This document shows, one piece after another, positions 14,393 through 40,998 of a stretch of 64,000 bases of DNA. How positions within the stretch are numbered: the first letter of the stretch is position 1; each line of letters opens with the position of its first letter. Origin of the DNA: Leptospiraceae bacterium (GTDB taxonomy: Bacteria > Spirochaetota > Leptospiria > Leptospirales > Leptospiraceae); NCBI GenBank assembly GCA_024233865.1, contig JACKPA010000012.1, forward strand, positions 64,001 to 128,000, written 5' to 3'. The notes beneath the pieces were generated by a model. The model did not search any database. It had not been told where the DNA came from and worked only from the letters and a program-made list of their open reading frames with translations. A program made the translations under genes and the position numbers.

Positions 14393-15148
14393 ATGATTAT
14401 TGTATCGATAGCCAACCAAAAAGGTGGAGAGGGCAAAACAACCACTTCAATAAATCTAGCTGATGGAATAGCTAGAAGAAATAAGAGAACTTTGTTAATT
14501 GATATGGATCCACAAGCAAATTCGACCGGTATATTTTTAAATTCCGATCAAATAGAAAAATCAATGTACCATGTTTTTAATTCTTTTGCACCTGTAAAAG
14601 AAATTATCCACAAAACCAAAGTCGAAAATCTTGATATCGCTCCTTCTGAGCTAAAATTGGCCGAAATGGAAACAAGGAGTTCTAATACGGTAGAAGCTCC
14701 TTATATACTGAAAGACGCTTTGAGCAACCTAAATAATGAGTATGACATCTGCATAATCGATTGTCCTCCTAGTTTATCCATCTTTACCATCAATGCTTTG
14801 GTTGCTTCCAATTATATAATCATTCCTTTACAGGCAGAAAAGTTTTCGATTGATGGCATAATAGGACTACAAGGCACTGTTGATAATATAAAAAAGAGAA
14901 TCAATCCTCAACTACAGATTCTAGGAGCACTTATTACCCAATTAAAACCCCAGACATTATTAACAAAAACAATCGTACCAGTAATTGTAAAGTTTTTTAG
15001 GTTGTTTGATACAACAATTTCAGACGGTGTATCTGTTGGAGAAAGCAATATGGCAAGAAGTTCTGTTTACACCTATAATAAAAAAAGCAAACAAGCGCAG
15101 GAATATGAAAACTTTACAGAGGAAGTTTTAAATGAGCTCGAAAAGTAA
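14393..15148 (+). CDS. parA: ParA/Soj partition ATPase
   Basis: Deviant Walker A NQKGGEGKTTTS; 251 aa. Overlaps parB by 17 bp. Confidence 0.9.
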   Translation: MIIVSIANQKGGEGKTTTSINLADGIARRNKRTLLIDMDPQANSTGIFLNSDQIEKSMYHVFNSFAPVKEIIHKTKVENLDIAPSELKLAEMETRSSNTVEAPYILKDALSNLNNEYDICIIDCPPSLSIFTINALVASNYIIIPLQAEKFSIDGIIGLQGTVDNIKKRINPQLQILGALITQLKPQTLLTKTIVPVIVKFFRLFDTTISDGVSVGESNMARSSVYTYNKKSKQAQEYENFTEEVLNELEK

Positions 15149-15980
15149 AAGATTAGGGACTCTTGTTGATATATTTCAAGCAGAAACATTAGAAGGCTCT
15201 ATAAAAAAAATTAAAATAGACTCAATACAACCCTCTGATACTCAACCTAGAATAGATAGAAGGAAAGCAGTCGATGAATTAGCAGAAAGTCTAAAACAAA
15301 ATGGACTTCTGCAACCAATTCTAATAACAAAAAGAGATGGTGAAAGTAATTACAGAATTATAGCAGGAGAGAGAAGATATCATGCTGCCAAATCATTAGG
15401 GTGGACAGAATTAGAATGTAAAATATTAAATAAAACAGAAAAAGAAACCTACAAACTAGCCATTATAGAGAACTTACAAAGAGAAAACCTTACTCCCTAT
15501 GAAGAAACAGAAGCCATTGCATTTTTAAAAAGCAACTACCATTATACAGATCTGGAATTAGCAGAAATCTTCGGAAAAAGCCGAAGTTATATGACTGAAA
15601 TATTAAGCATCTCCACACTAAATAAAGATGAGATGCAAATTTGCAAAGAAAACGGTATAGGTACAAAAAACCTTCTTGTTCAGGCTGCACAAGCCTCTAA
15701 AAAAGGAGATTTCACTGAATTCATAGAGCAAATAAAAAATAAAGAAATCAAAACAGTTAAAGACGCAAAAAAATTTAATAAAAAGATAACCATTGAAAGC
15801 GATAACACTTTAAACGATGCTATCCCCCTCAATACCCCCAATGAAAACCACCAAGAAACCAAAAGTAATTATACAATAACAAAAGATTCCAATCAAATAA
15901 TTATACAAGTCAGCAATCATGAGCTTATCAATAAAATCTATGAGTTTATAAGCCAAGAATTAGCAAATCTTCAGCTATAA
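15132..15980 (+). CDS. parB: ParB/Spo0J partition protein
   Basis: ParB box IIAGERRYHAAKSLGW. The N-terminal ParB/Srx fold is followed by a divergent C-terminus. Confidence 0.85.
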   Translation: MSSKSKRLGTLVDIFQAETLEGSIKKIKIDSIQPSDTQPRIDRRKAVDELAESLKQNGLLQPILITKRDGESNYRIIAGERRYHAAKSLGWTELECKILNKTEKETYKLAIIENLQRENLTPYEETEAIAFLKSNYHYTDLELAEIFGKSRSYMTEILSISTLNKDEMQICKENGIGTKNLLVQAAQASKKGDFTEFIEQIKNKEIKTVKDAKKFNKKITIESDNTLNDAIPLNTPNENHQETKSNYTITKDSNQIIIQVSNHELINKIYEFISQELANLQL

Positions 15981-16115: not shown

Positions 16116-16192
16116 CCTGTTGATTAAATTTAATCAACAGGAAATCGATCTTAAAGCACGTGTAATATGATTAAATTTAATCATATTACACG
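16116..16192. promoter_or_regulatory. Two perfect palindromes (26 bp and 34 bp) sharing core TGATTAAATTTAATCA; candidate centromere (parS-like) or iteron/operator
   Basis: Palindrome 1 is CCTGTTGATTAAATTTAATCAACAGG at 16116-16141. Palindrome 2 is CGTGTAATATGATTAAATTTAATCATATTACACG at 16159-16192. Both lie in the 660-bp gap between parB and the Rep-like gene. Confidence 0.5.
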
Positions 16193-16550: not shown

Positions 16551-17609
16551 ATGAGACATAAATTAACTTATAATCGAAGGGTGTCAATAATTTTTGATTA
16601 TATTTTGCTTAATATTAGTTTTTTTTTATCAAAAGGAGAAGGTATGAGCGAGAATTTTCAGTATTTTAAGTTCATGACTGATATTATAGACTCTGGGACT
16701 TGGGCAAAGCTGTCTTCCGCTGCCAAAAGCTTGTATCCTGTGTTGCTAAAATTTAGTGACCAGACTTTCAAGTATGTATGGCCTAGCACGGAAACCTTGA
16801 TGAGGCTGACCGGCTTCAAAACTAAAAAGTCTGTCATCTTGGCAAAAAAAGAACTTATGAACGTAGGACTTATCCGCACAGTCTCAGGTTCTGGGAGAAC
16901 TAATTCCAGATACTATTTTTCTTTTAATTACGAGGGTTCCAAAATTACACCTCTGGGGGATAAAGAAATATACCGATCAGGTGTATTGAAATCAACCGCA
17001 GAGGCATGTCCGGCTACATCTTTAGGGGATAGCTCAGCAAACCCAAACAATATTAATATAACTATAACCAATAATCCAGGTCAAAAAGCAAAAAATTCGA
17101 GTAATAAAACCAAAAATACTGACAACTATTTTAAAAACAATTTTTCTGAAGATGTATTATCTTATGAATCTTTGCTAGATATTTATGGAATTGAAATATT
17201 AAACTACGCTTATTCCATAGCTCAAAAGAGAAATCTGGAAAATGATATTTCTCACATAAAAGATATCTGCAAAGCTCGTGTTAAAGAAATTAGCTCTACA
17301 CTTGTGGGAGCAAAGCAAACACCAAACAATAACCTCGAAATATCGAGTATATGGTCTAATTTTATTAGATGGACAGAGATTCACTTGACTTCAACATCGA
17401 TTGAAATGATAAAAAATGCAAATATTCTCATTGAAGGACGAACAATTATTGTTCAAGGGGAGTTGAATAAATATTTGCAGCAAGTTATTGTGAAATATTT
17501 TTCTGAAAAAGTTACTCCTAAAATATTTATTTCTTTTAGTAATAATGAAAAGATAAATGGTAAAGCTTTAAATGGTATCGAATTTTCAAAAAACGGACAT
17601 TTTGATTGA
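16551..17609 (+). CDS. Winged-HTH replication-initiator-like / regulatory protein
   Basis: Probable true start at 16644 (ATG preceded by AAAGGAGAAGG). The N-terminal wHTH resembles plasmid/phage Rep N-domains (..SAAKSLYPVLLKFSD..WPSTETLMRLTGFKTKKSVILAKKELMNVGLIRT), followed by a low-complexity linker. Confidence 0.45.
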   Translation: MRHKLTYNRRVSIIFDYILLNISFFLSKGEGMSENFQYFKFMTDIIDSGTWAKLSSAAKSLYPVLLKFSDQTFKYVWPSTETLMRLTGFKTKKSVILAKKELMNVGLIRTVSGSGRTNSRYYFSFNYEGSKITPLGDKEIYRSGVLKSTAEACPATSLGDSSANPNNINITITNNPGQKAKNSSNKTKNTDNYFKNNFSEDVLSYESLLDIYGIEILNYAYSIAQKRNLENDISHIKDICKARVKEISSTLVGAKQTPNNNLEISSIWSNFIRWTEIHLTSTSIEMIKNANILIEGRTIIVQGELNKYLQQVIVKYFSEKVTPKIFISFSNNEKINGKALNGIEFSKNGHFD

Positions 17610-17760
17610 TTTTAATCAAAAGTTAAATTCAGATTTTGATATATTATTCAAAAAATAACTTATAAATTTAATTGTAAATTGAATGATAAATCCATTATTG
17701 TAATATTTATAAAGGGTAAAACACAAAAAGATTCAAGAAAATCATTAAAAAGAGAGTACA

Positions 17761-20277
17761 ATGATAAAGAAGAATATTAGAATTAGCCATCCAGCAGATA
17801 TATTAATCAAACAAGTTGAGACAAAAGGAAAATATGATTTAGAAAATGGTAGTCTCAATCATTTTAGTTACGAATCTGCTTCTATCGAGATTTCAGCTAT
17901 TGCATTACAACTACAAGAAGATTCGGCTTTTAATTTAGTTCAATTTGAATTTATTGAAGGCGAAAAAGAGTTTTTACCGGAAATTTTTAGATTTGAGATT
18001 TCAAGAGACGGATTAGTTTGGGAACCTATTATTCAAGAGTATAAATACTCTAGTTTAAACAAAAATTTCTGCAAATGGAACTTTTCGTTGGTTCAAACAA
18101 ATTTTTTTAAATTGGTAATCAAACCAACAAGGAGAACCCAGAAGGGAGATTATAAAGTTTCATTCAAAAACTTCAAATTAAAAATATCCGGTATTGAGAA
18201 AATTATAGCCAGTTCTGAAAATGATAGGTATTGGGTAAAAGAAAACCTTGTTGATGGCAGAAAAGATTATGGTTGGTCTTCTAAAGAAAAGAAACAATCT
18301 AGTGAAGAGTTTGTTTTATTTGATTTGGGTTCTATTAATAAAATTGAGGAATTTCGCCTTTTAACTAAAAACGAATCCGAAACGAATTTTCCTGAAAATT
18401 TCGTTGTTTATTATAGCGAAGATGATTTGTCTTGGTTTCAATTGCTAGATGAACCTCACTTTCTCTCTGAGCCTGCAACTTGGTACTCATGGAAGTTTTT
18501 ACCTATAAATATGAGGTTTATGAAAATTGTATGTTTATGCGAAAATTTAAATTCCCAAGGTTTGTATGTAAGCCAGTTTGTTGAAGTTGAGATATATGCT
18601 TCTACTGATGAAATTAGTTTTTCTGGGAAAATTAATAGTTTGGATCCCCCCCCCTACTCTTCTATAATTAGGTCTGGTTTGGTTCGCCTTGCCGGTAATG
18701 GTGAATCAAGAGAAGGAGTTGTCGTCCAGGGTAATGATAGAAGACTAATGGATGCTACAATTGAGTTTAAAGGAATTGTAGAATTAGCCAGCGATGGCGA
18801 AGATAGAGAAGGAGTTGTCGTCCAGGGTAATGATAGAAGGTTAAAAATTGCTACTGAAAATAATTATGGTTTGGCAAAATTAGCTAAAAATAGAGAATGT
18901 AGAACGGGGATTGTTGTTCAAAGTGATGATGATAGACTAAGAACCGCAACTACGGAATATTCTGGGATTGTGGAATTGGCTGAGGACGGGGAAACTAGAC
19001 CTGGAACTGTTGTTCAAGGTAACGATAGCCGTTTGAAAAAAGCAACTACAAAAGATTACGGGTTAACTGTAATGGCTGAATTAGGTTCTGATTTACCTGG
19101 AAGAGTTATTACCGCTGATGATCCAAGAATTAAAAAAGCTACCACCACAAAAGAAGGAATTTTAAGATTTGCTCACAATGGCGAAAGTGAAGGATTATGT
19201 GCTGTTCAAGGCAGTGATAAAAGGTTAAAAGAAGCAACTACCGAAAGTTTTGGAATTGTGAAACTAGCTCACTCCGGAGAAGGAAATGAAGGAAAGGTCA
19301 TTCAAGGCAATGATAAAAGGTTAAAGGAAGCCACTGAAACTGAACCCGGCATTGTATCATTTGCCAAACATGATTCTAATGTAGCCAACAAAGCAGTACA
19401 AGCAAACGATCCAAGACTATATGATTCTAGAGAAGCGAAACCGCATACGCATGATTATGCTCCAAAAGTTCATGACTATAATTCTCATACCGGACTGATT
19501 CGCCTAAAAGGAGAAGTTCAGTCTCAGTTTAAACATATCGTTGTTCCACCTCAGAATCATGGAGTGATATACGGGAAAAATGAAGCAACATCGGGAGCTG
19601 GAATTGTTGGAGTAGGTGAAGATGAAGGGGTTTTAGGTTATTCTAATGATTATGGAGTTGTTGGCTATTCAGGAAGTTCAAAAGAAGATTCGGCTGGTAT
19701 ATGTGGGTTTGCTAAAAAAGGATTCGGAGGGGAATTTACTTCCCAGTCTTCTTATGCTTTATGCGCTAATGGTAAGGGAGTAAAGAAAAAAGATATATCC
19801 GGTTCCGGAAAAGCTGTATTGGCATTGGGAAACTCTGAATTTCATGGAATGATTAAAATTGAAGATGACAATGCTTCTCATTGTATTGCTGCATGTTTTA
19901 CTTTGCTTCAGAATGAAATTATCTCGGAAGGAGACATTATCGTTATTGGCGAAAAAGATGGTAAAATAGCAAAATCAAAAACAGCGTATTCTACTAGAGT
20001 TATTGGAGTTGCAGTTTCTTCAATGTCGATACAGCTAGGACGGGATAAAACAAAATCGGAAGATGTGTTAGTTGCTCTTTATGGCATGGTAAAAATTAAT
20101 GTAGATGCTTCCGATGGTGCTATTCATTTTGGTGATTTACTTGTTTCTGGTCTAACCAGTGGTCATGCAGTAAAAGCTGATACCAATAAACTAAAGCCAG
20201 GAATGATTGTTGCAAAGGCTTTAGGTGAATGTAAGAAAGATAGATTACTTATTCCAGCTATTCTAACTATTCAATAA
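17761..20277 (+). CDS. Phage-tail-fibre-like repeat protein with two N-terminal discoidin (F5/8 type C)-like domains
   Basis: ~9 tandem ~28-aa repeats (GIVELAxDGExRxGxVVQGNDxRLKxATT) resemble the tail-fibre 'GxVxLAT-xE-xxGTD' repeat. The protein also has a Gly-rich segment and a C-terminal beta-rich domain. A C9 homopolymer in-frame at 18646-18654 encodes PPP. Confidence 0.6.
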   Translation: MIKKNIRISHPADILIKQVETKGKYDLENGSLNHFSYESASIEISAIALQLQEDSAFNLVQFEFIEGEKEFLPEIFRFEISRDGLVWEPIIQEYKYSSLNKNFCKWNFSLVQTNFFKLVIKPTRRTQKGDYKVSFKNFKLKISGIEKIIASSENDRYWVKENLVDGRKDYGWSSKEKKQSSEEFVLFDLGSINKIEEFRLLTKNESETNFPENFVVYYSEDDLSWFQLLDEPHFLSEPATWYSWKFLPINMRFMKIVCLCENLNSQGLYVSQFVEVEIYASTDEISFSGKINSLDPPPYSSIIRSGLVRLAGNGESREGVVVQGNDRRLMDATIEFKGIVELASDGEDREGVVVQGNDRRLKIATENNYGLAKLAKNRECRTGIVVQSDDDRLRTATTEYSGIVELAEDGETRPGTVVQGNDSRLKKATTKDYGLTVMAELGSDLPGRVITADDPRIKKATTTKEGILRFAHNGESEGLCAVQGSDKRLKEATTESFGIVKLAHSGEGNEGKVIQGNDKRLKEATETEPGIVSFAKHDSNVANKAVQANDPRLYDSREAKPHTHDYAPKVHDYNSHTGLIRLKGEVQSQFKHIVVPPQNHGVIYGKNEATSGAGIVGVGEDEGVLGYSNDYGVVGYSGSSKEDSAGICGFAKKGFGGEFTSQSSYALCANGKGVKKKDISGSGKAVLALGNSEFHGMIKIEDDNASHCIAACFTLLQNEIISEGDIIVIGEKDGKIAKSKTAYSTRVIGVAVSSMSIQLGRDKTKSEDVLVALYGMVKINVDASDGAIHFGDLLVSGLTSGHAVKADTNKLKPGMIVAKALGECKKDRLLIPAILTIQ
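18700..19330 (+). repeat. Coding tandem repeats (~84 bp x ~9) of the tail-fibre-like protein
   Basis: Reiterated ..GTTGTTCAAGG(T/C)AATGAT(A/G)GA.G..TAAAA.. blocks encode VVQGNDRRLK units. Confidence 0.6.
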
Positions 20278-20290
20278 GGGGAGTATTTTT

Positions 20291-21160
20291 TTGAGTAAAA
20301 TTATTGATATTTATTTAAAATCCAATAAACCGGTTTTTTCTTTTGAATTTTTTCCTCCTAAAACAGTAGAAGGTGAAGAAAAATTATTTTTAACAATAGA
20401 GAATTTAAGCCAATTAAATCCTTCTTTTGTGTCCGTTACTTATGGTGCCGGAGGGACAACTCGAACTAAAACGGTTGAGATTTCACGAAAAATTCAAGAT
20501 GATTTTAAAATTGAAACTATGTGCCATTTTACTTGTGTAGGTGTGGATAGTAATCAAATCAAAGAAACTTTAGATTCAATCCATAATTTTGGTATTAAGA
20601 ATCTTATGGCTTTGAGAGGTGATCCTCCTAAAGGTGAAGGGAAATTTACTAAAACTAAGGGAGGGTTTGAAAATGCTACGGAGCTGATTTCATTTATTAA
20701 AAGTGAAGGCTATTCTTTTTGCTTGGGTGGAGGCTGTTATCCGGAAAAGCACCCTGATGCTCCAACCCTTGAAATAGATATTCAAAACCTTAAACATAAG
20801 GTAGATGCGGGAGCTGATTTTTTGATTACTCAATTGTTTTTTAAAAATAGTGTATTTTTTGATTTCTTAGAAAATACAAAAAAAACCGGGATCAACAAAC
20901 CTATTATTCCTGGAATTATGCCTATCACAAACTTTAACCAAATAGCAAGGTTTAAAGAAATGGCAGGTTGTGAAATACCAGAATCATTAGTTACTGAATT
21001 GGAAGCCTTAAAAGACGATCCAATCGAATTTCAAAAAAAGAGTTTAGCATATACTACCGGACAGTGTAAAGAATTGTTACAAAATGGAGTTTTCGGTATT
21101 CATTTCTATACGTTAAATCAATCTCGAGCTACTTTTGAAATTATGAAAAAACTAATTTGA
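20291..21160 (+). CDS. metF: 5,10-methylenetetrahydrofolate reductase
   Basis: SVTYGAGGTTR and MALRGDPP motifs; 289 aa. Confidence 0.85.
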   Translation: MSKIIDIYLKSNKPVFSFEFFPPKTVEGEEKLFLTIENLSQLNPSFVSVTYGAGGTTRTKTVEISRKIQDDFKIETMCHFTCVGVDSNQIKETLDSIHNFGIKNLMALRGDPPKGEGKFTKTKGGFENATELISFIKSEGYSFCLGGGCYPEKHPDAPTLEIDIQNLKHKVDAGADFLITQLFFKNSVFFDFLENTKKTGINKPIIPGIMPITNFNQIARFKEMAGCEIPESLVTELEALKDDPIEFQKKSLAYTTGQCKELLQNGVFGIHFYTLNQSRATFEIMKKLI

Positions 21161-21169
21161 GGGTTTGAT

Positions 21170-21790
21170 ATGTTGTATATAAAATTTGTTGTTATGGTTG
21201 TTTTGGCAAGTATGATTTTACTTTGTTCACAAACCAAACCTCAAGTTCAGGATGAACCAATGCCGAAGCATCCTCAACCGGAAATAAAAAAAGAGAACAA
21301 TAAAATAGAGATAAAGCCGGAAACTCCAAATAGAAGTCTAAACAGAACATCTGTCTGGAATTACGAAGGATGGGGAAATAATCCTGAAGATTATTTAAAA
21401 GGAGAGGATATGTTTTCTGTTGAATCGGGAGACTATTACTATAAAAAAGTTATTGGCTCAGCATCTCATAGAGCCATTGAATTAAACTCTCCTTCTTATA
21501 TGCAATCAACTTGTAAAATAAATGCTGGTAAGCAAAACCATAATTCTATTTTAGAATCTATGTACAATTCTGTTCTTGTAGATCGGATAAATGAGAAAAA
21601 AAATGAGAATATTAAGCAATTAGTCGAATTATCAAGTGATATACGAGTGGAACCTTTGTTGTGTAGAGCAATTGGAAAGGGAGCAACCTTTACACAATGT
21701 GAATGTGTAGTTTACATTCAATATAAGGGTGGAAAAGAAGAGGCATACAAAGACATTCAAAGGAGATTGGAAGTTGGTGTAGATGAATGA
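21170..21790 (+). CDS. Secreted/lipoprotein hypothetical; first gene of the helicase cluster
   Basis: Signal peptide (MVVLASMILLCSQ). Stop overlaps the next start by 4 bp (ATGA). Confidence 0.4.
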   Translation: MLYIKFVVMVVLASMILLCSQTKPQVQDEPMPKHPQPEIKKENNKIEIKPETPNRSLNRTSVWNYEGWGNNPEDYLKGEDMFSVESGDYYYKKVIGSASHRAIELNSPSYMQSTCKINAGKQNHNSILESMYNSVLVDRINEKKNENIKQLVELSSDIRVEPLLCRAIGKGATFTQCECVVYIQYKGGKEEAYKDIQRRLEVGVDE

Positions 21791-24237
21791 ATAAGTCAAG
21801 TTTATTGGAAACTTTTATCCAAGAAAAATTCTCAAGGGAATTGCTTTCGCACAAGAAAATTGCTTCTTCTGAAGGAAGTTTTTCCCCCCTACCCTATTCT
21901 TTGAACCCTATTTTACAAAAAACTCTAATAGAATCCGGCTACAGTCAACTGTACTCTCATCAATTGGCTGCTTTTGATTCTATCTCTCAAAAAAAAAATG
22001 TGGTATTAGTAACCAATACGGCAAGTGGAAAGACTCTATCTTTTTTATTGCCTTTGCTTAATGATTATTCCAATGCAAAAACACCATTTACGTCTATTCT
22101 TATGTACCCTACAAAAGCGTTATCAAGAGATCAAGAAAATACCCTAAGAAAATTGGTTGAAAGTGTATGCGAACAAAACAAAATTGGTACTTACGACGGT
22201 GATACTCCCCAAGAAGAAAGGACTAATATATTAAAAAAAGCCGATTTTTTGATTACCAATCCGGATATGTTACATTCCGGAATTTTACCAAACCACAATC
22301 GAAAATGGAAAGGTTTTTTATCTAGATTACGATATGTCGTGGTGGATGAAGTTCATTCATATCGTGGAGCTTTTGGTTCTCATGTTGCCAATGTTTTTAG
22401 ACGATTGTTACGTTTATGTGAATTGCATGGCTCAAAACCGGTTTTGATTGCTTGCTCAGCTACTATCGGAAATCCGAAGGAACATGTAGAGATGTTATTC
22501 CAGAGAGAGTTTTATCTTATAGACAAAGATGGTTCTCCGAAAGCTGGAAGAAATTTATACTTTATGAATCCTCCTATGGTTAAAAATTCAATAGATACAT
22601 TACATCGGAAGGGAGCTAATTCCATAGCCATACCTATCTTAAGATTTGCAACGGAAAAGGGAATAAGGACAATTTGTTTCTGTCGTTCCAGACAAGAAGT
22701 CGAAAGGCTTTATAGAGCGACAATTGACGGACACTGGTATATCGCTGAAAAGATTAAACCGTATCGTGGAGGACTTTTACCTAATGAACGGAGGCAGCTA
22801 GAGAAGGATTTATTTTCTGGTAAAATCAATACTATTATAGCAACAAATGCTCTCGAACTTGGGATTGATATAGGAAATATGGTACTTTGTGTTTTATCCG
22901 GTTATCCAGGAACTGTATCTAGCTTTTGGCAGAGGGTTGGTAGAACTGGACGCAGTGGCGACAAATCCATTGCGGTTTATATAGCTAAAGATTCGCCCAT
23001 TGATCAGTACATAGTGAATCACCCTGAATTTGTTACTCATGCTCCTATAGAGCAAGCATGGTTGAATGCTGATAATCCTTATATTCTATTGCAACATATT
23101 CCTTGTGCTGCCTATGAATATCCGATCGAGGTAAATGATAAAACTTTTTCAAAAGAAGTCCATCGAATTGCCATTGATGTTTTAAACAAAAATAAGACTT
23201 TATCCCAGTACAACAACTATTATAGATACGCTTTAGAAGACTTTCCTTCCAAAGGAGTTAATTTGAGGGGTATGACGGACTATAATATTCAAATTTCTTG
23301 TGAAGGAGAGATTATTGGTGAAATTGACCCTATTGGGGCGATGGATACACTCTATAAAGATGCAATCTATCAGCATTTGGGAACTCGGTATATGTCTTTG
23401 GATTTGGATATGGAAAAGAAGTTATGCCAAGTGAGTAAGGTTTCCATAGACTATTATACGGAATCTGTTTGGGAATCTATGATAAACATGTTGGATTGCT
23501 TGGAATCCAAAGAAATCAATGGAAGTTTTGTTAATCTTGGATATGTACAAGTCAATCGACAGCCCAAATTGTACAAAAAAATAAAAGAAAGAACTTATGA
23601 AAATATTGGTTACGGACCAATTACTCTCAAACCGTTTTTGTATGAAACTATGGGTTTTTGTATATTTCCACCTAAAACTTGGCTGGAAGCTATGGAAAAA
23701 ACGGACATTCGATTTATTGAATCCGGTTTGTTCGGGCTAAGCTATATTCTAAAAAAAACAGCACCTATTGTGTGTATGGGAGATATAGGAGATATTCAAA
23801 CGGATGTTTCTCTAGAGGATTTTACAAAGGTAGGTTGGAAAAGTTCTTTATTTTTGTTTGATTCTCATGAGGGAGGAGTTGGTTATTCAGAGAAGGTTTA
23901 TGAAAAGCTATCGGAAACTTTAGTATTATGTGAGCAAATTATTATAGAGTGTAGTTGCGGTGTCGGATGTCCGTCTTGTGTTCCACCTCTTCTGCCAGGA
24001 ATTGAGAACAAAGAGTTGGAAAGCTTTTTAGTGGAAACAAATGTTGCAGTAGAATCAACAAGAAGTCTGCTCATTATGTTGATTTATGGTAAATTGTATA
24101 CCCCAAAAGTCAAAGTTTTGGAAACAAAGCTGAAGTCTGCTCATACTACAGAAAAAGACTTGGAAAGAGAAAAGATGGAAAAACAACTGAATCGAGCGGC
24201 AGACCTACTTTCCAAAAAAAGGGAAAAAATCCATTGA
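21787..24237 (+). CDS. MrfA/YprA-like DExH-box helicase with C-terminal DUF1998 (Zn-binding 4-Cys) domain
   Basis: Motif I TASGKT, motif II DEVH, motif III SAT, motif VI QRVGRTGR. C-terminal CSCGVGCPSC cluster. 816 aa. Confidence 0.8.
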   Translation: MNKSSLLETFIQEKFSRELLSHKKIASSEGSFSPLPYSLNPILQKTLIESGYSQLYSHQLAAFDSISQKKNVVLVTNTASGKTLSFLLPLLNDYSNAKTPFTSILMYPTKALSRDQENTLRKLVESVCEQNKIGTYDGDTPQEERTNILKKADFLITNPDMLHSGILPNHNRKWKGFLSRLRYVVVDEVHSYRGAFGSHVANVFRRLLRLCELHGSKPVLIACSATIGNPKEHVEMLFQREFYLIDKDGSPKAGRNLYFMNPPMVKNSIDTLHRKGANSIAIPILRFATEKGIRTICFCRSRQEVERLYRATIDGHWYIAEKIKPYRGGLLPNERRQLEKDLFSGKINTIIATNALELGIDIGNMVLCVLSGYPGTVSSFWQRVGRTGRSGDKSIAVYIAKDSPIDQYIVNHPEFVTHAPIEQAWLNADNPYILLQHIPCAAYEYPIEVNDKTFSKEVHRIAIDVLNKNKTLSQYNNYYRYALEDFPSKGVNLRGMTDYNIQISCEGEIIGEIDPIGAMDTLYKDAIYQHLGTRYMSLDLDMEKKLCQVSKVSIDYYTESVWESMINMLDCLESKEINGSFVNLGYVQVNRQPKLYKKIKERTYENIGYGPITLKPFLYETMGFCIFPPKTWLEAMEKTDIRFIESGLFGLSYILKKTAPIVCMGDIGDIQTDVSLEDFTKVGWKSSLFLFDSHEGGVGYSEKVYEKLSETLVLCEQIIIECSCGVGCPSCVPPLLPGIENKELESFLVETNVAVESTRSLLIMLIYGKLYTPKVKVLETKLKSAHTTEKDLEREKMEKQLNRAADLLSKKREKIH

Positions 24238-25004
24238 TAGAAGAAGCGTTCTTGCATTTTAAGAGAGTTGGAAAAAAGACTCTTGAAAGGTTAAAAGGAT
24301 ATGGAATCCAAAATTGGTATGACGTATTAAAACTACAAAATACAAATGTTATTTCCAAGAATTTGGTTAACAGCTTGGTTGAAGAGATTCATTTTTATTT
24401 GGATGTATTAGAAACAGAAAATATATCGTGTTTAGTGAACAATTTTAAAGGAGAGGATAAGTGGAGAATACTGGGACGTTACTTCGATAGATTATCTTAC
24501 TTTGATATAGAAACGGATGGACTTGGATATGATAGCAGGATTACCCTTATTGTTTGTTATCACAAAGGTCGCTTGTACGAATTTGTAAGACATGAGAATT
24601 TGGAAGGTTTTTTGGATTTATTAAATGATATTGAACTCCTTGTTTCCTTTAACGGACAATCTTTTGATGTTCCTTGGGTTCGCCATGCCTTTCATATTCC
24701 AGAATTACCATGTCCTCATATAGATTTGAGGTGGGTATGTAAAAAGATAGGTTTGGAAGGGGGACTCAAGAGTATAGAGTGGGATTTAGGAATACAAAGA
24801 CCCAGTGATTTGATTGGAGTTGGTGGATACGAAGCCGTTTTGCTTTGGGATAGGTGGGAAAGATGGAATGATGTGGAAGCAAAAAGAAAGTTGATTCGCT
24901 ATTGTTCTGCTGACGTTTTGTCTTTGCAGATTGTTACTGCCAAAGTTTTAAAACTACAAGGTCTTGAAGTATATATAACAGAGGATGCTTTTCGCTTGTT
25001 ATGA
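24234..25004 (+). CDS. YprB/MrfB-like RNase-H-fold DEDD 3'-5' exonuclease
   Basis: Exo I YFDIETDGLG, Exo II FNGQSFDVPW, Exo III YCSADV. Start overlaps the helicase stop (ATGA). Confidence 0.65.
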   Translation: MIEEAFLHFKRVGKKTLERLKGYGIQNWYDVLKLQNTNVISKNLVNSLVEEIHFYLDVLETENISCLVNNFKGEDKWRILGRYFDRLSYFDIETDGLGYDSRITLIVCYHKGRLYEFVRHENLEGFLDLLNDIELLVSFNGQSFDVPWVRHAFHIPELPCPHIDLRWVCKKIGLEGGLKSIEWDLGIQRPSDLIGVGGYEAVLLWDRWERWNDVEAKRKLIRYCSADVLSLQIVTAKVLKLQGLEVYITEDAFRLL

Positions 25005-25768
25005 AAACAGTTATACTAACAATTCAAAATATATATGAATATATCGAAAAATTAGGACCCGGTAAGTCCATTCGAATTTTACAAGGTCTTGGTTATGGGA
25101 AAATTGCTCAATTATTGGAGAAAATACCAAAGGATCGATTGCTAAATTTATCCCATAGATTGTCTGATGAGAAAATTATTGAATTGATAAAACAAATTCC
25201 CGAAAAGCATTTGCTTGAATTGATCGAGCAAAATTCGGATGATGATCTGGATTATTTTATACATAATGTTCCCATAGACGATATTAAAAAATTGGCTATA
25301 TCACTCTCCCCTACTGAGCTAAAATATTTCTCTTCGGAATTAGGAAATGAAAAATCCGTATCTATTCTAAAAAGTGTTGGAATTGAGAAGTCTATAGAGT
25401 TAATTCATTATGTGAAAGCAGAAAAAGTTGTTTGGTTGGTAAATTCAATTGAAATAAATAATTTCTTGAAACTATTAGAATACTTAAGTGTGAGTCAATG
25501 CAAAAAATGGATCCGAAAACGCGGGATCGAAGAAATTCCTTATCTGGTTCATTCTTTAACAATCCAAAATATGATACAATTTATAAAAACAATAGGATTT
25601 GAAAAAAGTTTGAAAATCATCGAACTTTTGGGAGCTGATAAACTGATTGATTTGACACAAACGATTTCTTCCATGAAGTTTCCTAAAATGAATTTGGAAT
25701 ATACACCTCCGGTTTCTAAAAAAAAGAGAAGAATCCCCAAAAAGAAGCCGGTTACCAAGAAAAAATAA
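25001..25768 (+). CDS. Triple helix-hairpin-helix (HhH) DNA-binding protein with poly-Lys/Arg tail
   Basis: Three ~45-aa repeats each carry an HhH-like h-x-G-h-G-K-h motif (ILQGLGYGKIAQLL, LKSVGIEKSIELI, IKTIGFEKSLKII). C-terminus is KKKRRIPKKKPVTKKK. Translationally coupled to the exonuclease gene. Confidence 0.45.
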   Translation: MKTVILTIQNIYEYIEKLGPGKSIRILQGLGYGKIAQLLEKIPKDRLLNLSHRLSDEKIIELIKQIPEKHLLELIEQNSDDDLDYFIHNVPIDDIKKLAISLSPTELKYFSSELGNEKSVSILKSVGIEKSIELIHYVKAEKVVWLVNSIEINNFLKLLEYLSVSQCKKWIRKRGIEEIPYLVHSLTIQNMIQFIKTIGFEKSLKIIELLGADKLIDLTQTISSMKFPKMNLEYTPPVSKKKRRIPKKKPVTKKK

Positions 25769-25812: not shown

Positions 25813-27291
25813 TTACAAAATATGTGGTTGATGATACAAACTCAATGCTTTTTCTTTTTGTTTTTCATGCTCCACAATAGGCTTAGGGTACAATTTGTGA
25901 TCCAAGATTGGCTGGTGTAATTTGTTTGATTCCACATCTTTTAATTCCGGTACGTACTTGCGAATGTAGTCACCATTCGGATCAAACTTTTTACTCTGCA
26001 ACCAAGGGTTAAAGATTCGGAAATAGGGTTGCGGATCACATCCAGTAGAAGCTGCCCATTGCCAACCACCATTATTGGGAGCTAAATCTCCATCCAAGAG
26101 TTGTTCCATAAAATATTTCTCTCCCCACCTCCAATCGATCAAAAGGTCTTTGGTTAAAAATGATGCTACAATCATCCTCACTCGATTGTGCATCCATCCA
26201 GTCGTTTTTAACTCTCTCATACCGGCATCTACTATCGGAAAGCCGGTTAATCCATCCTTCCATACCGCAAACCATTTGGGATTGTTTTCCCATTGTATAT
26301 TTTTATATTTTAATAGAAAGCTTTCTGTTTCTACATAAGGATGTCGATATAAAATATGGTAGTAGAATTCTCTCCATATCAATTCGCTAAAGAACTTATC
26401 TCTTGGGCTATCCGGTTTTTTGTAAGGAGTTAAGCCAAAAAAGGCAATAATCTGGGAAACGGTGAGAGAGCCGTTTTTTAAAAACTGGGCAAAATGAGAA
26501 GTTCCATTAAGGAAAGGTATATCTCTACTTTTACTATAATTGCCAATCTTTTTTTGAAATGCCTTCATAAGCTCAAAGGCAACTGTAAATCCACTTTCTG
26601 GAATTGAGACCGTAACTTGTCTTTTGTTTTTTTGAGAATAGATTGCTAGATGATCAGGATAAGTTATAATATTGTGAAATAATTTATCCCAATTAATACA
26701 GAACGATTCTTTATGTTTGTCTATTTTAAAACTTTCTAATGCTTTTTTTTGAACTTCTATGCGTTTTTGAATTTTTTCAGTTTGGAAGATCTCAAGCCAT
26801 TTTTTTGAAAAAGGAGTATATATTTGATAACCATCTTTAGTTTTTTGATCTTTTATAAGTTCGTGTGGCTCAATTAGCAAATGGTCTCTTTCCGAATGAA
26901 TGTTTATTCCGTGTTTTTGAAACACGTTTGCTACTTGTTTATCCCTTTCGACTGCAAAAGGCTCATAATCTTTTCCCCAAGAAATGTATGTAGGAAGTGA
27001 GATTTCATGACTTTTGAGCTTGAAAAACAAATCAGAAAATGCATTTAAAGGGTCTTTGTCCAAAACCAGCAGGTCACTTCCGGCTGATTTTAAGTTTTTT
27101 TTTAGTTCGATTAGAGTCTCAATAAAAAATTGAAATCGGTTGATTGAAAAATCCGAGCGAGATAAAAATTTTTTATCAAAACAAAAAAATCCCAGAACAT
27201 TGCCATTGGTTTGATCCCGATTCCATTCCAAAGCATTATTACCCACTATTCGTAAATCCCTGCGAAACCAATGAATTCCATAATTTTCCAT
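25813..27291 (-). CDS. phr: Deoxyribodipyrimidine photolyase / cryptochrome family
   Basis: FAD-binding region WREFY...DGDLAPNNGGWQWAASTG. N-terminal alpha/beta domain. 492 aa. Confidence 0.85.
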   Translation of the reverse strand: MENYGIHWFRRDLRIVGNNALEWNRDQTNGNVLGFFCFDKKFLSRSDFSINRFQFFIETLIELKKNLKSAGSDLLVLDKDPLNAFSDLFFKLKSHEISLPTYISWGKDYEPFAVERDKQVANVFQKHGINIHSERDHLLIEPHELIKDQKTKDGYQIYTPFSKKWLEIFQTEKIQKRIEVQKKALESFKIDKHKESFCINWDKLFHNIITYPDHLAIYSQKNKRQVTVSIPESGFTVAFELMKAFQKKIGNYSKSRDIPFLNGTSHFAQFLKNGSLTVSQIIAFFGLTPYKKPDSPRDKFFSELIWREFYYHILYRHPYVETESFLLKYKNIQWENNPKWFAVWKDGLTGFPIVDAGMRELKTTGWMHNRVRMIVASFLTKDLLIDWRWGEKYFMEQLLDGDLAPNNGGWQWAASTGCDPQPYFRIFNPWLQSKKFDPNGDYIRKYVPELKDVESNKLHQPILDHKLYPKPIVEHEKQKEKALSLYHQPHIL

Positions 27292-27319: not shown

Positions 27320-27817
27320 TTGCATTTATTTCCGTATAAAATAGCATTATTACAAGAAATTTTAATTTTCAAGGAGAAAAAATCAATGAAAATATATATT
27401 CTTATATTATTAGTTATTCTATCCCACCTAACAATTGGCAGCTTAGTTGCTCAAGTCCAACAAAAAGAATCGTTTGAATTACCACAAAGACCCAGAATTC
27501 GTTACAAAACAATTGATAAAAAACCAATTCGGTTGGAAGGGGTAGTTAAAAAAAAGATGTGGTCAAAATCTTTAAAAAGCTACTGTGCACAAGGTAGTGA
27601 TTATATCGTTCTTCAAACCAAAGACAAAGAATACGTTTTAGAGTTTAAAAATGATGAAATGAAAAGTAAATATAGTAATGGCAGAAAAAATGTAAAGCTG
27701 AAAGGGAAGAGAATGGTAAAAATCATTCCTACTTCAAAAAATCCAATGGAGCAACATCCCGTTAGTTATGGTGATAAAGATGAATTTAGCTGTGAAATAT
27801 TTAGGGTTCTTCCATGA
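27320..27817 (+). CDS. Secreted hypothetical protein
   Basis: Probable start at MKIYILILLVILSHL (~27383) with an upstream GGAG. Stop overlaps the next gene. Confidence 0.4.
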   Translation: MHLFPYKIALLQEILIFKEKKSMKIYILILLVILSHLTIGSLVAQVQQKESFELPQRPRIRYKTIDKKPIRLEGVVKKKMWSKSLKSYCAQGSDYIVLQTKDKEYVLEFKNDEMKSKYSNGRKNVKLKGKRMVKIIPTSKNPMEQHPVSYGDKDEFSCEIFRVLP

Positions 27818-31032: not shown

Positions 31033-31941
31033 TTACGGCACTCCCAAGTCCCCTATCTGTATTGCACTGACTTCTTCCAGTTTACAAGTAAGTCCTGCTG
31101 CAAAGTATTCATTGAACGGAATATAGGTTGTTCCGCAAAGCGAAGCGGAAAGCAGACTGTTTATATTCACAATACTTGCTATGGGTACTACGGTTTCTAA
31201 TTTATTCAGGCATGCGTCCAAAGAACTTTTGGTATACTTTTTACTTCCTTCGATTTTAGAATACATAAATATTTGTCCGGCTAATGTAAAAGTTGCGTAA
31301 TCGGACATGGTACTGCCACTTGTGCTGGATGAAAAGTTTGAATTTGCACTAGAGCTGGAATCTACGAGTTGAGTCAAGGAAAACTCTATATCATAGGTAT
31401 AATCAGTGCCCCCTTTTTCGCATTTCATAAAAATATAATTAGATGTGGGTATGCTCTCATAATACTGATTTATGTTATTACTGATACTAGTATTGTAAGT
31501 AGAATATAAAGAACTTGAAGAATCATTTGTTAGCTCGTTAGAACTTGTTATATATATATAACAGGCAGCATATCCGCTTTTACCATTATAATAAAGAGTT
31601 CCTGCTGTTGTTACAGGCATATAGAACACATCCACGTCTGAGTCCGAACTGATTGTTCCTTTGATTCGAGTCGTTTTTTCCGATGTAGGATAAGTTGCCT
31701 GGTTTGCGGTTTTAAAGGTGTCGTTGCTTTCCGTATCGTTTGTTACATTATTGGTAGATGAGTCCGTAGGACAACTGTAGGTTGATGATGAAAATAACGT
31801 AGCTAATCCGATTCTGGAGTATTGGCTCACCTTTGCGGTGATCTTTTCTTTTGCTTTTTTCCCGCTTACGATCTCGTAACCTCCTGTATACATGCAACTT
31901 GATAGTATGAGTATGATTGTTAGAATAACTGTTTGTTTCAT
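31033..31941 (-). CDS. Ser/Thr-rich lipoprotein
   Basis: Signal plus lipobox LILSSC. Low-complexity S/T/N-rich sequence. Confidence 0.4.
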   Translation of the reverse strand: MKQTVILTIILILSSCMYTGGYEIVSGKKAKEKITAKVSQYSRIGLATLFSSSTYSCPTDSSTNNVTNDTESNDTFKTANQATYPTSEKTTRIKGTISSDSDVDVFYMPVTTAGTLYYNGKSGYAACYIYITSSNELTNDSSSSLYSTYNTSISNNINQYYESIPTSNYIFMKCEKGGTDYTYDIEFSLTQLVDSSSSANSNFSSSTSGSTMSDYATFTLAGQIFMYSKIEGSKKYTKSSLDACLNKLETVVPIASIVNINSLLSASLCGTTYIPFNEYFAAGLTCKLEEVSAIQIGDLGVP

Positions 31942-39777: not shown

Positions 39778-40998
39778 TTAATTAAAAAAAAATTCCATTT
39801 CTTTTTTGAGCCAAAGGATACGAACGATAAGCATAGCCAAAAGCACAATGCCAAACCACAAAATTCCAAAATCATTGTAAGATTTTTTAGAATTTTTGTA
39901 CAAAATGATCATAGGGATGCTGAGAGTAAACATTCTCATTATGTTATCGTAAGTTAGCCAATAACCTTGTTCGGCAATCCCGGCAGTAAAAAGGATGAAT
40001 AAAATTGGAAGAAACCAAACAAAATCTTGAACCGTTTTAATATTTCTTAAATTCAAAAGCAGTAGCAGATAAAAAATAAAGATCGGATATTTTGCCAGTT
40101 CTCGAACAAAAGGTGATAGATTCATTGGAGTCGAAAACGAAATGCTTTTAAAAAAGCCAAAAAACGGATAATCGATCAAATCAAGAAATGTTAGTGGATA
40201 TGTTCCGGGATTGGCATCTAAAAAAAATCGAAGGTAGAAGACAAAGGCAAAATAAAAAATTATAGACCCCCCGACTAGTCCAAGCAAACTTTTAGTCTCA
40301 TTACTCCCCCCTGTTGGGGGGAGTATTTGGACTGAACTAGAACTAAAGCTATTTGGGGGGTAGCTTCTTTTCAGCCATAACAATAACAATAACATCCCCA
40401 TTATGCTGAGAGCTGATTCTTTGATCAAAACGAAAAAGCAGCCAAGCAGTAGCAAAACAGATATCTTTGCCGGTTTGTGGCAATCTTTTTGATTCAAAAA
40501 GTAGAATATAAAAATCGTCCAAGAGCATACCAAAGAATCGGATAGTAGTAATAGGTTTGAGTTGATTACAAAAGGCGAAAACAGATGGAAATTCGCCAAA
40601 TAGCGGATTTCTTTTTTGCAGAGTTTTTTGAGCATAACAAAGGACATAATGTGAGATAGGTGTAGTATTGCTAAAGTGATAACCGGATAGGCTTTTGTGC
40701 CAAATATTTTTGAAAAAATTGAGGTTAGCAAGGGAAGCCCGATTCGAGTAAATCGAACACTAAATGAGTCCAAAATCGGAAGTTGCGAAGAAACACCACT
40801 CAAATACTGATTGATCAAATAAAAAAATTGCCCATCATATCCACCACTTTTATATACCACAAAACCTTTATCAACAAAATCGGGATTCAGGTTCAAAAAT
40901 CCTTCCCAGATCCCAATCATCGAAGAAAGGTTGTAATCATAAGGTTTTATGCGATAATAAATTAAAATTACGTTTAAAATAATGTATAAAAATATCAT
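39778..40998 (-). CDS. Polytopic integral membrane protein (GT-C-like/unknown) carrying an in-frame G/C-rich hairpin insertion
   Basis: ≥9 predicted TM helices. Hairpin CTCCCCCCTGTTGGGGGGAG at 40304-40323 encodes ..LPPTGGS.. in-frame. Confidence 0.5.
   Translation of the reverse strand: MIFLYIILNVILIYYRIKPYDYNLSSMIGIWEGFLNLNPDFVDKGFVVYKSGGYDGQFFYLINQYLSGVSSQLPILDSFSVRFTRIGLPLLTSIFSKIFGTKAYPVITLAILHLSHIMSFVMLKKLCKKEIRYLANFHLFSPFVINSNLLLLSDSLVCSWTIFIFYFLNQKDCHKPAKISVLLLLGCFFVLIKESALSIMGMLLLLLWLKRSYPPNSFSSSSVQILPPTGGSNETKSLLGLVGGSIIFYFAFVFYLRFFLDANPGTYPLTFLDLIDYPFFGFFKSISFSTPMNLSPFVRELAKYPIFIFYLLLLLNLRNIKTVQDFVWFLPILFILFTAGIAEQGYWLTYDNIMRMFTLSIPMIILYKNSKKSYNDFGILWFGIVLLAMLIVRILWLKKEMEFFFN

Follow-up and report, generated by a model that had tools for sequence, protein, structure and literature searches.

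A probable two-gene MrfA/MrfB-type helicase-exonuclease module beside genes of older descent in a Leptospiraceae bacterium

Genes for an MrfA/YprA-type DNA helicase and a predicted DnaQ-fold exonuclease adjoin one another, flanked by a lipoprotein gene and a fourth gene, in the genome of a Leptospiraceae bacterium (GenBank assembly GCA_024233865.1, contig JACKPA010000012.1, positions 64,001 to 128,000 of the forward strand). This whole stretch of 64,000 nucleotides (nt) is called the window below, and positions are counted from its first letter. A preliminary description had read the four genes as an operon in which an MrfAB-like pair is extended by a secreted lipoprotein and a helix-hairpin-helix (HhH) DNA-binding protein. 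We consider it likely that the functional unit is instead a translationally coupled two-gene module of the MrfA/MrfB type (21787-25004), and that its two neighbours, the lipoprotein gene and gene 4, stand beside it by descent. The features of the cluster are as follows, with lengths in amino acids (aa).

21170-21790, forward strand: gene 1, LipL21-like lipoprotein, 206 aa
21787-24237, forward strand: gene 2, MrfA/YprA-type superfamily 2 (SF2) DExH DNA helicase, 816 aa
23950-23979, forward strand: four-Cys zinc motif CSCGVGCPSC in the MZB/DUF1998 domain of the helicase, placed by alignment to MrfA
23995-24237, forward strand: C-terminal extension of the helicase, about 70 residues (aa 745-816), with no counterpart in Bacillus subtilis MrfA
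24234-24237, forward strand: TTGA overlap, a translational-coupling junction with the helicase TGA stop inside the exonuclease TTG start region
24234-25004, forward strand: gene 3, predicted DnaQ-fold DEDDy 3'-5' exonuclease, 256 aa
24234-24488, forward strand: helical domain at the N-terminus of the exonuclease (aa 1-85), which bears an HhH-like G-h-G motif
24489-25004, forward strand: DnaQ-fold DEDDy core with D91, E93, D145, Y223 and D227, and Leu97 at the wedge position
25001-25768, forward strand: gene 4, MgtE-N/FliG-like alpha-solenoid protein, 255 aa

Judged by its sequence, gene 2 is a full-length MrfA/YprA helicase of the repair branch, with a predicted enzymatic activity. Members of this branch are characterized by 3'->5' DNA helicase activity and a part in repairing mitomycin C adducts. 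Its product aligns with B. subtilis YprA/MrfA (PDB 6znp) from aa 1-744 against 3-742 (E=2.4e-159, 535 bits), and its domains follow the MrfA order of NTR, RecA1, RecA2, winged helix, OB, CON and MZB/DUF1998. Pfam matches to DEAD (5e-31) and Helicase_C (3e-20) are accompanied by matches above cut-off to WHD_HRQ1 and MZB/DUF1998. Helicase motifs I, II, III and VI read SGKT (80-83), DEVH (187-190), SAT (224-226) and QRVGRTGR (382-389), and the C-terminal CSCGVGCPSC occupies aa 722-731; the DExH and four-Cys motifs named in the preliminary description are thus both in place. Residues C722, C724, C728 and C731 align one-to-one with the zinc ligands of MrfA in the spacing C-x-C-x3-C-x2-C. Zinc binding by the MrfA four-Cys motif has been demonstrated (PMC7797055), and four conserved zinc-binding cysteines are the criterion by which Burby and Simmons recognize MrfA (10.1101/426304). 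The C-terminal extension carries a basic segment and closes with K/R-K/R-R-x-K/R-x-His in all 11 homologues compared; for the window helicase the end is K/R-R-E-K-x-H. It is common to homologues from Leptospiraceae, Fibrobacterota, Lentisphaeria and Victivallales, and its last codons overlap the start of the exonuclease gene.

The product of gene 3 matches Pfam RNase_H_2 at 2.3e-28, and the exonuclease motifs reported earlier were located as YFDIETDG (89-96), NGQSFD (140-145) and YCSAD (223-227). MrfB (PDB 8un9) is its sole significant sequence match in the PDB, with E=5e-4 for the single sequence and 1e-6 for a profile of 56 family members. D91, E93, D145 and D227 are invariant in 56/56 members and align with MrfB residues D107, E109, D172 and D262. 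At the place of the MrfB catalytic His258, all 56 members have a tyrosine, Tyr223 in the window protein (YCSAD versus HNEMD); with Tyr as the fifth catalytic residue throughout, the subfamily is therefore DEDDy and not DEDDh. This assignment fits the published remark that MrfB structurally resembles DEDDy enzymes (PMC11194089), and the structural neighbours that Manthei et al. list for MrfB itself are the same as those of the gene 3 exonuclease (PMC11194089). Structure prediction for the 24234-25004 product, proposed earlier as a check on its exonuclease fold, returned the DnaQ fold with high confidence (predicted local distance difference test, pLDDT, 95). Together with the colinearity of the helicase with 6znp, the standing of MrfB as the nearest solved relative of the exonuclease upholds the original assignment of an MrfA/MrfB-type pair. 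The chain stops 29 residues past D227, and no match to a tetratricopeptide repeat (TPR) domain was found in it.

Ahead of the catalytic core, the exonuclease has an 85-residue domain whose family consensus is LHxxGIGxxxLxxLxxxGI, with RVG in the window copy. G13, G24 and W28 do not vary, and 53/56 members have G11. Searched against the PDB, a profile of this domain gave sub-threshold matches throughout, headed by the HhH elements of Hel308 (E=0.04), Pol beta (0.08), Rad51 and RecG. The predicted model is confidently helical, with helices at 14-22 and 28-36. This N-terminus is likely to be an HhH element, and the sole HhH-like element of the cluster.

The exonuclease family has a further conserved feature in residues C108, H110, C160, H162 and C224, which are invariant or nearly so in the 56 members; MrfB has no Cys at the positions aligned with C108, C160 and C224. 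Going by this residue pattern, these side chains may form an extra metal site. The subfamily comprises at least 505 proteins, from sources that include Leptospiraceae, Planctomycetota, Verrucomicrobia, Fibrobacterales, Lentisphaeria, Deltaproteobacteria and Riflebacteria, and haloarchaea have homologues of 30% identity. Eleven haloarchaeal megaplasmids carry an exonuclease homologue. On one of them, of Halorussus limi (NZ_CP096660.1, 336561-341607, locus L032), a full-length homologue of 30% identity stands alone, without a helicase, and adjoins a 1,411-aa gene of restriction-modification type with a TaqI-like specificity domain as well as an IS1595 transposase.

Four consecutive forward-strand open reading frames had been described for the cluster; all four exist at these positions, and the source genome, a metagenome assembly of an uncultured bacterium, has identical gene calls of its own. 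The accompanying statement that every junction is an ATGA overlap holds in part. Adjacent genes do share 4 nt at all three junctions, and the shared bases are ATGA between genes 1 and 2 and between genes 3 and 4; between the helicase and exonuclease genes they are TTGA, with TTG as the start codon of gene 3. Purine-rich codons at the 3' end of the helicase gene, together with this overlap, probably supply the ribosome-binding site of the exonuclease and couple its translation to that of the helicase. The pair now probably shares a transcript with the lipoprotein gene and gene 4. A run of overlaps like this is in itself not unusual, because 4-nt overlaps are common in the window, where two more occur at 27814-27817 and 31938-31941. 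A scan for consensus promoters and terminators gave counts no better than those from shuffled sequence, and so does not bear on internal promoters either way. The window was also scanned for Rfam families and tRNAs, with no match.

We considered the genomic neighbourhoods of the helicase, exonuclease and gene 4 in other genomes. A scan of a genome collection with the helicase, in which exact 8-mers were required, yielded six loci with no cultured Leptospira among them. Among the loci compared, only those of the nearest relative found (L010/L011) repeat the four-gene cluster, in the order metF-lipoprotein-helicase-exonuclease-gene 4 seen in the window, so that the expected conservation of the cluster as a unit in related genomes does not reach beyond this relative. 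In four other Leptospiraceae lineages the helicase and exonuclease genes are found together with neither the lipoprotein gene nor gene 4, and with a different gene following each time: they lie between prfB and trkH in L012-14, are followed by a TerB-like gene in L028/L029, and are followed by a pyruvate kinase gene on the opposite strand in L030. The pair is also present in L004, the fourth of these lineages, where the contig ends, and in L027 (Fibrobacterales), where a radical-SAM gene follows. The two genes overlap or abut in L010, L012-14, L004, L027, L028 and L030, and the TTGA junction recurs across phyla, in L010, L027, L028 and L030. Certain genomes have the helicase alone or the exonuclease alone.

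The lipoprotein gene and gene 4 have the complementary distribution. The genes on which this comparison draws, and other features outside the cluster, are the following.

14393-15148: parA
15132-15980: parB
16551-17609: gene for an HTH_36 protein
17761-20277, forward strand: gene for a discoidin (F5/8 type C) protein of 838 aa, separated by 13 nt from metF, which follows it
20291-21160, forward strand: metF (Pfam MTHFR, 4e-98), 9 nt from the lipoprotein gene
25813-27291, reverse strand: DNA photolyase gene, convergent with gene 4 across a 44-nt gap
39778-40998, reverse strand: membrane-protein gene, a homologue (35-46% identity, tblastn E=3e-61) of the gene that separates the lipoprotein gene from gene 4 in relatives without the pair; 14 kb downstream of the cluster

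The close-packed forward-strand block that contains the cluster thus begins upstream of it, with the 838-aa gene, metF and the lipoprotein gene separated by gaps of 13 and 9 nt. In L015, L016 and L019, discoidin, metF and lipoprotein genes are followed by a minus-strand membrane-protein gene and then by gene 4, and no helicase or exonuclease is present. L018 has the same arrangement without the lipoprotein gene, and it too has neither helicase nor exonuclease. The gene occupying this slot in L015/L016, L018 and L019 encodes a polytopic membrane protein of 409-428 aa on the minus strand. In L017, gene 4 is present with no exonuclease upstream. Because relatives that lack the pair have gene 4 and the lipoprotein gene in an older block, we regard the two genes as neighbours by descent; on the same evidence the claim that they extend MrfAB is not supported, since each occurs without the pair and the pair occurs without them.

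An order of events can be proposed on this basis. An ancestral block parA-parB-HTH-discoidin-metF-lipoprotein-[slot]-gene 4 would have lain near the origin of a chromosome-II-like replicon, and the pair would have entered the slot in a common ancestor of the window bacterium and its nearest relative (L010), a direction of rearrangement that we infer. In related lineages the minus-strand membrane-protein gene occupies the slot, and the gene at 39778-40998 would be its displaced homologue. The arrival of the pair by recent transfer from another phylum was considered and found no support. In a rough neighbour-joining tree without bootstrap, which is a weak test, the Victivallales/Lentisphaeria and Fibrobacter groups each cluster apart, and the window sequence is nested in neither.

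Gene 1 encodes a secreted lipoprotein, as first described. Its signal peptide ends at Cys19, and its positional homologues have the canonical lipoboxes LLLIGC and LLSIGC. The protein matches the NCBIfam model LipL21 (NF033162) with 49 bits (E=5.4e-13) and does not reach the equivalog cut-off of 200; judging from this score, it is a distant relative of LipL21 and not an orthologue. LipL21 is an envelope lipoprotein that binds peptidoglycan (PMC5764436).

Gene 4 was thought to have three HhH motifs, an assignment that we replace. Its product matches Pfam MgtE_N (PF03448) at 2.7e-13, above the gathering score, and each half of the protein matches separately, whereas no HhH family appears in Pfam even at E<=10. 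Its AlphaFold model matches FliG and the N-domains of MgtE, with no HhH protein among the matches listed. The model consists of 17 short helices and a disordered tail; its pLDDT averages 78 and rises from about 60 in the N-terminal half to >90 in the C-terminal one. Conserved motifs are KKWIRKRG (168-175) and MKFP (225-228), and the Lys/Arg tail already noticed is confirmed at aa 240-255, with an isoelectric point (pI) of about 10.9. Among 1.84 billion representatives, searched exhaustively, there were only 26 relatives, which are about 250 aa long and have KKWIRKRG, MKFP and the Lys/Arg-rich tail in common; a word-indexed search with an alignment returned three. Metagenomic loci of gene 4 were found with an alignment of four sequences; broader alignments of the family were too divergent. 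At L020 (8001-9523), the gene of a distant relative within the family (P0146) and a FliH-domain gene are arranged tail to tail, with no helicase nearby. This fliH neighbour and the FliG/MgtE-like fold are hints of a flagellar link of the gene 4 family.

These data bear on the idea that a secreted lipoprotein and an HhH DNA-binding protein work with the helicase and exonuclease as one four-component system. Four overlapping genes in an order shared with one relative speak for it, and synteny has already largely refuted it. Gene 1 encodes an exported envelope protein that resembles LipL21, gene 4 does not encode an HhH protein, and the lipoprotein gene follows metF in relatives that have no pair. 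Between the window and L010 the lipoprotein is only 43% identical, compared with 74% for the helicase, 66% for the exonuclease and 73% for gene 4, and it overlaps the helicase gene by 14 nt in L010 and not by 4. We therefore hold such a system to be extremely improbable.

Another possibility concerns gene 4 alone, which could have been captured into the mrfAB transcription unit as a scaffold or DNA-tethering subunit of a lineage-specific complex, replacing in trans the TPR domain that the DEDDy exonuclease subfamily is missing. This would suit an exonuclease that has no such domain, the role of which in MrfB is described as unknown (PMC11194089), and a helical-repeat protein with a strongly basic tail; the ATGA overlap between exonuclease gene and gene 4 is kept in both the window and L010, and the identity of gene 4 between them is near the helicase value. 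However, the gene 4 orthologues in L015/L016, L018 and L019 (40-49% identity) retain the length, motifs and tail on contigs with no helicase or exonuclease nearby, no helical-repeat gene lies downstream at any other TPR-less exonuclease locus compared, and overlapping starts are frequent in this genome. A complex of this kind seems unlikely to us.

Several points nevertheless count against treating the pair as a self-contained unit that acts as MrfAB does. The overlap between the exonuclease gene and gene 4 is identical in the two genomes with the four-gene arrangement, and gene 4 is as conserved between them as the helicase; a functional link acquired secondarily is therefore possible. The direction of rearrangement is a parsimony argument over few metagenomic contigs, without a rooted species tree. 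Finally, the tyrosine in place of His258, the missing TPR domain and the failure of distant homologues to complement may reflect a diverged function.

If the two-gene module works like its B. subtilis counterpart, for which a model has been published (10.1101/426304, PMC7797055, PMC11194089), the SF2 helicase would load on single-stranded DNA beside a bulky lesion, move in the 3'->5' direction and peel off the damaged strand. The DEDDy exonuclease, perhaps held on DNA or on the helicase through its N-terminal HhH-like domain, would then degrade the freed 3' end, giving an excision repair independent of UvrABC. Lesion specificity here may differ, because the Pseudomonas pair and other distant MrfAB homologues did not complement B. 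subtilis mutants (10.1101/426304).

The choice between repair and defence had been left open. Within the YprA family, Bell et al. (10.1101/2025.09.15.676423) distinguish a repair branch, whose helicases occur alone or with MrfB, from defence branches marked by inserted domains, fused nucleases and typical partner genes; the window helicase fits the repair branch. An anti-phage module that is based on a YprA-family helicase and akin to DISARM, Druantia, Dpd or ARMADA could be read from partial matches of the helicase core to BrxH, DruE, DrmA and DpdF in PADLOC and NCBIfam. Those matches and one to Cas3 are limited to the RecA core (about aa 39-400), and the next best PDB match of the helicase, a Druantia helicase, reaches 86 bits where MrfA reaches 535. 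PADLOC left gene 4, the exonuclease and the lipoprotein unmatched. The pair has no methyltransferase, no PLD or Vsr nuclease and no DrmB-like or BrxA-like element next to it, and its neighbours are housekeeping genes (metF, photolyase, parAB). No homologue of the exonuclease was found in 50,697 phage records, and its plasmid homologues are confined to haloarchaeal megaplasmids. With core-only matches, no partners and no phage homologue, defence is without support and we rate it as very improbable; repair is much better supported for the helicase-exonuclease pair. A functional link to the convergent photolyase gene was also considered and rejected, as the nearest relative (L010) has an acyl-CoA dehydrogenase gene at that place.

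The wider setting of the cluster appears to be that of a replication origin. The parA, parB and HTH_36 genes lie at the minimum of cumulative GC skew (about 16 kb), where gene orientation switches too. The HTH_36 protein is 41% identical to the one encoded at 1327-2217 of Leptospira interrogans chromosome II (listed as 'plasmid'), and that chromosome starts with ParB-HTH-discoidin-metF in the same order and then diverges. Orthologous placement of the discoidin gene is seen in L015, L018, L019 and L. interrogans chromosome II, and the position of metF is shared by these and by L010. Given this gene order and the skew minimum, the window seems to be where a secondary replicon of chromosome-II-like type has its origin. 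Two copies of a perfect 16-nt palindrome, TGATTAAATTTAATCA, separate parB from the HTH gene (16121-16136 and 16168-16183), and a variant matching at 14/16 positions lies just past the HTH gene (17603-17618); these are candidate parS-like or initiator-binding sites. The discoidin protein contains 32-residue repeats (G-x-V-x-L-A...Q-G-N-D-x-R-L), of which seven copies fit the pattern, with one register gap (aa 323-553).

The apparent four-component 'extended MrfAB' would on our preferred reading, the two-gene module with inherited neighbours, be the result of where a known module landed and not a new system. The analysis documents an MrfB subfamily with Tyr for His, no TPR domain and an HhH-like N-terminus, which bears on how MrfA and MrfB cooperate, and it defines a small protein family whose member here, gene 4, lies close to the origin of a leptospiral replicon that resembles chromosome II.

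Compared with B. subtilis MrfA (6znp/6znq/6zns), the window helicase is colinear and shares the domain order, helicase motifs and four zinc cysteines, and it differs in the roughly 70 added C-terminal residues, with their basic helix and invariant His. Likewise, the exonuclease shares with B. subtilis MrfB (8un9) the DnaQ fold, including a long alpha-C helix as is typical of polymerase-B-like exonucleases, an alignable D-E-D-D set and Leu wedge, and a gene placed directly 3' of the helicase gene and translationally coupled to it. At about 23% identity, it differs from MrfB in being DEDDy where MrfB is DEDDh, in lacking the C-terminal three-repeat TPR domain, and in its folded HhH-like 85-residue N-terminus. 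The MrfB homologue of Pseudomonas aeruginosa (10.1101/426304) is similar in having no TPR domain and in being paired with an MrfA homologue, a likeness drawn from its description and not from its sequence. Gene 4 resembles the armadillo-like repeats of the MgtE N-domain and FliG, since it passes the Pfam score and its model superposes. However, with neither a CBS nor a membrane domain it cannot be a Mg2+ channel, neither FliG_C nor FliG_M reaches threshold, and its KKWIRKRG and MKFP motifs and Lys/Arg tail are specific to the family. With the YprA helicases of defence systems (DISARM DrmA/DrmB, Druantia DruE, Dpd and ARMADA) the window protein has the helicase superfamily and the DUF1998 domain in common. 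It differs from them in combining helicase and DUF1998 in one polypeptide that is free of a BrxA-like insert, extra zinc modules or a fused nuclease, and in a locus with none of DrmB/DrmC/methylase, DruA-D/H, a Dpd cluster or a Vsr nuclease fusion.

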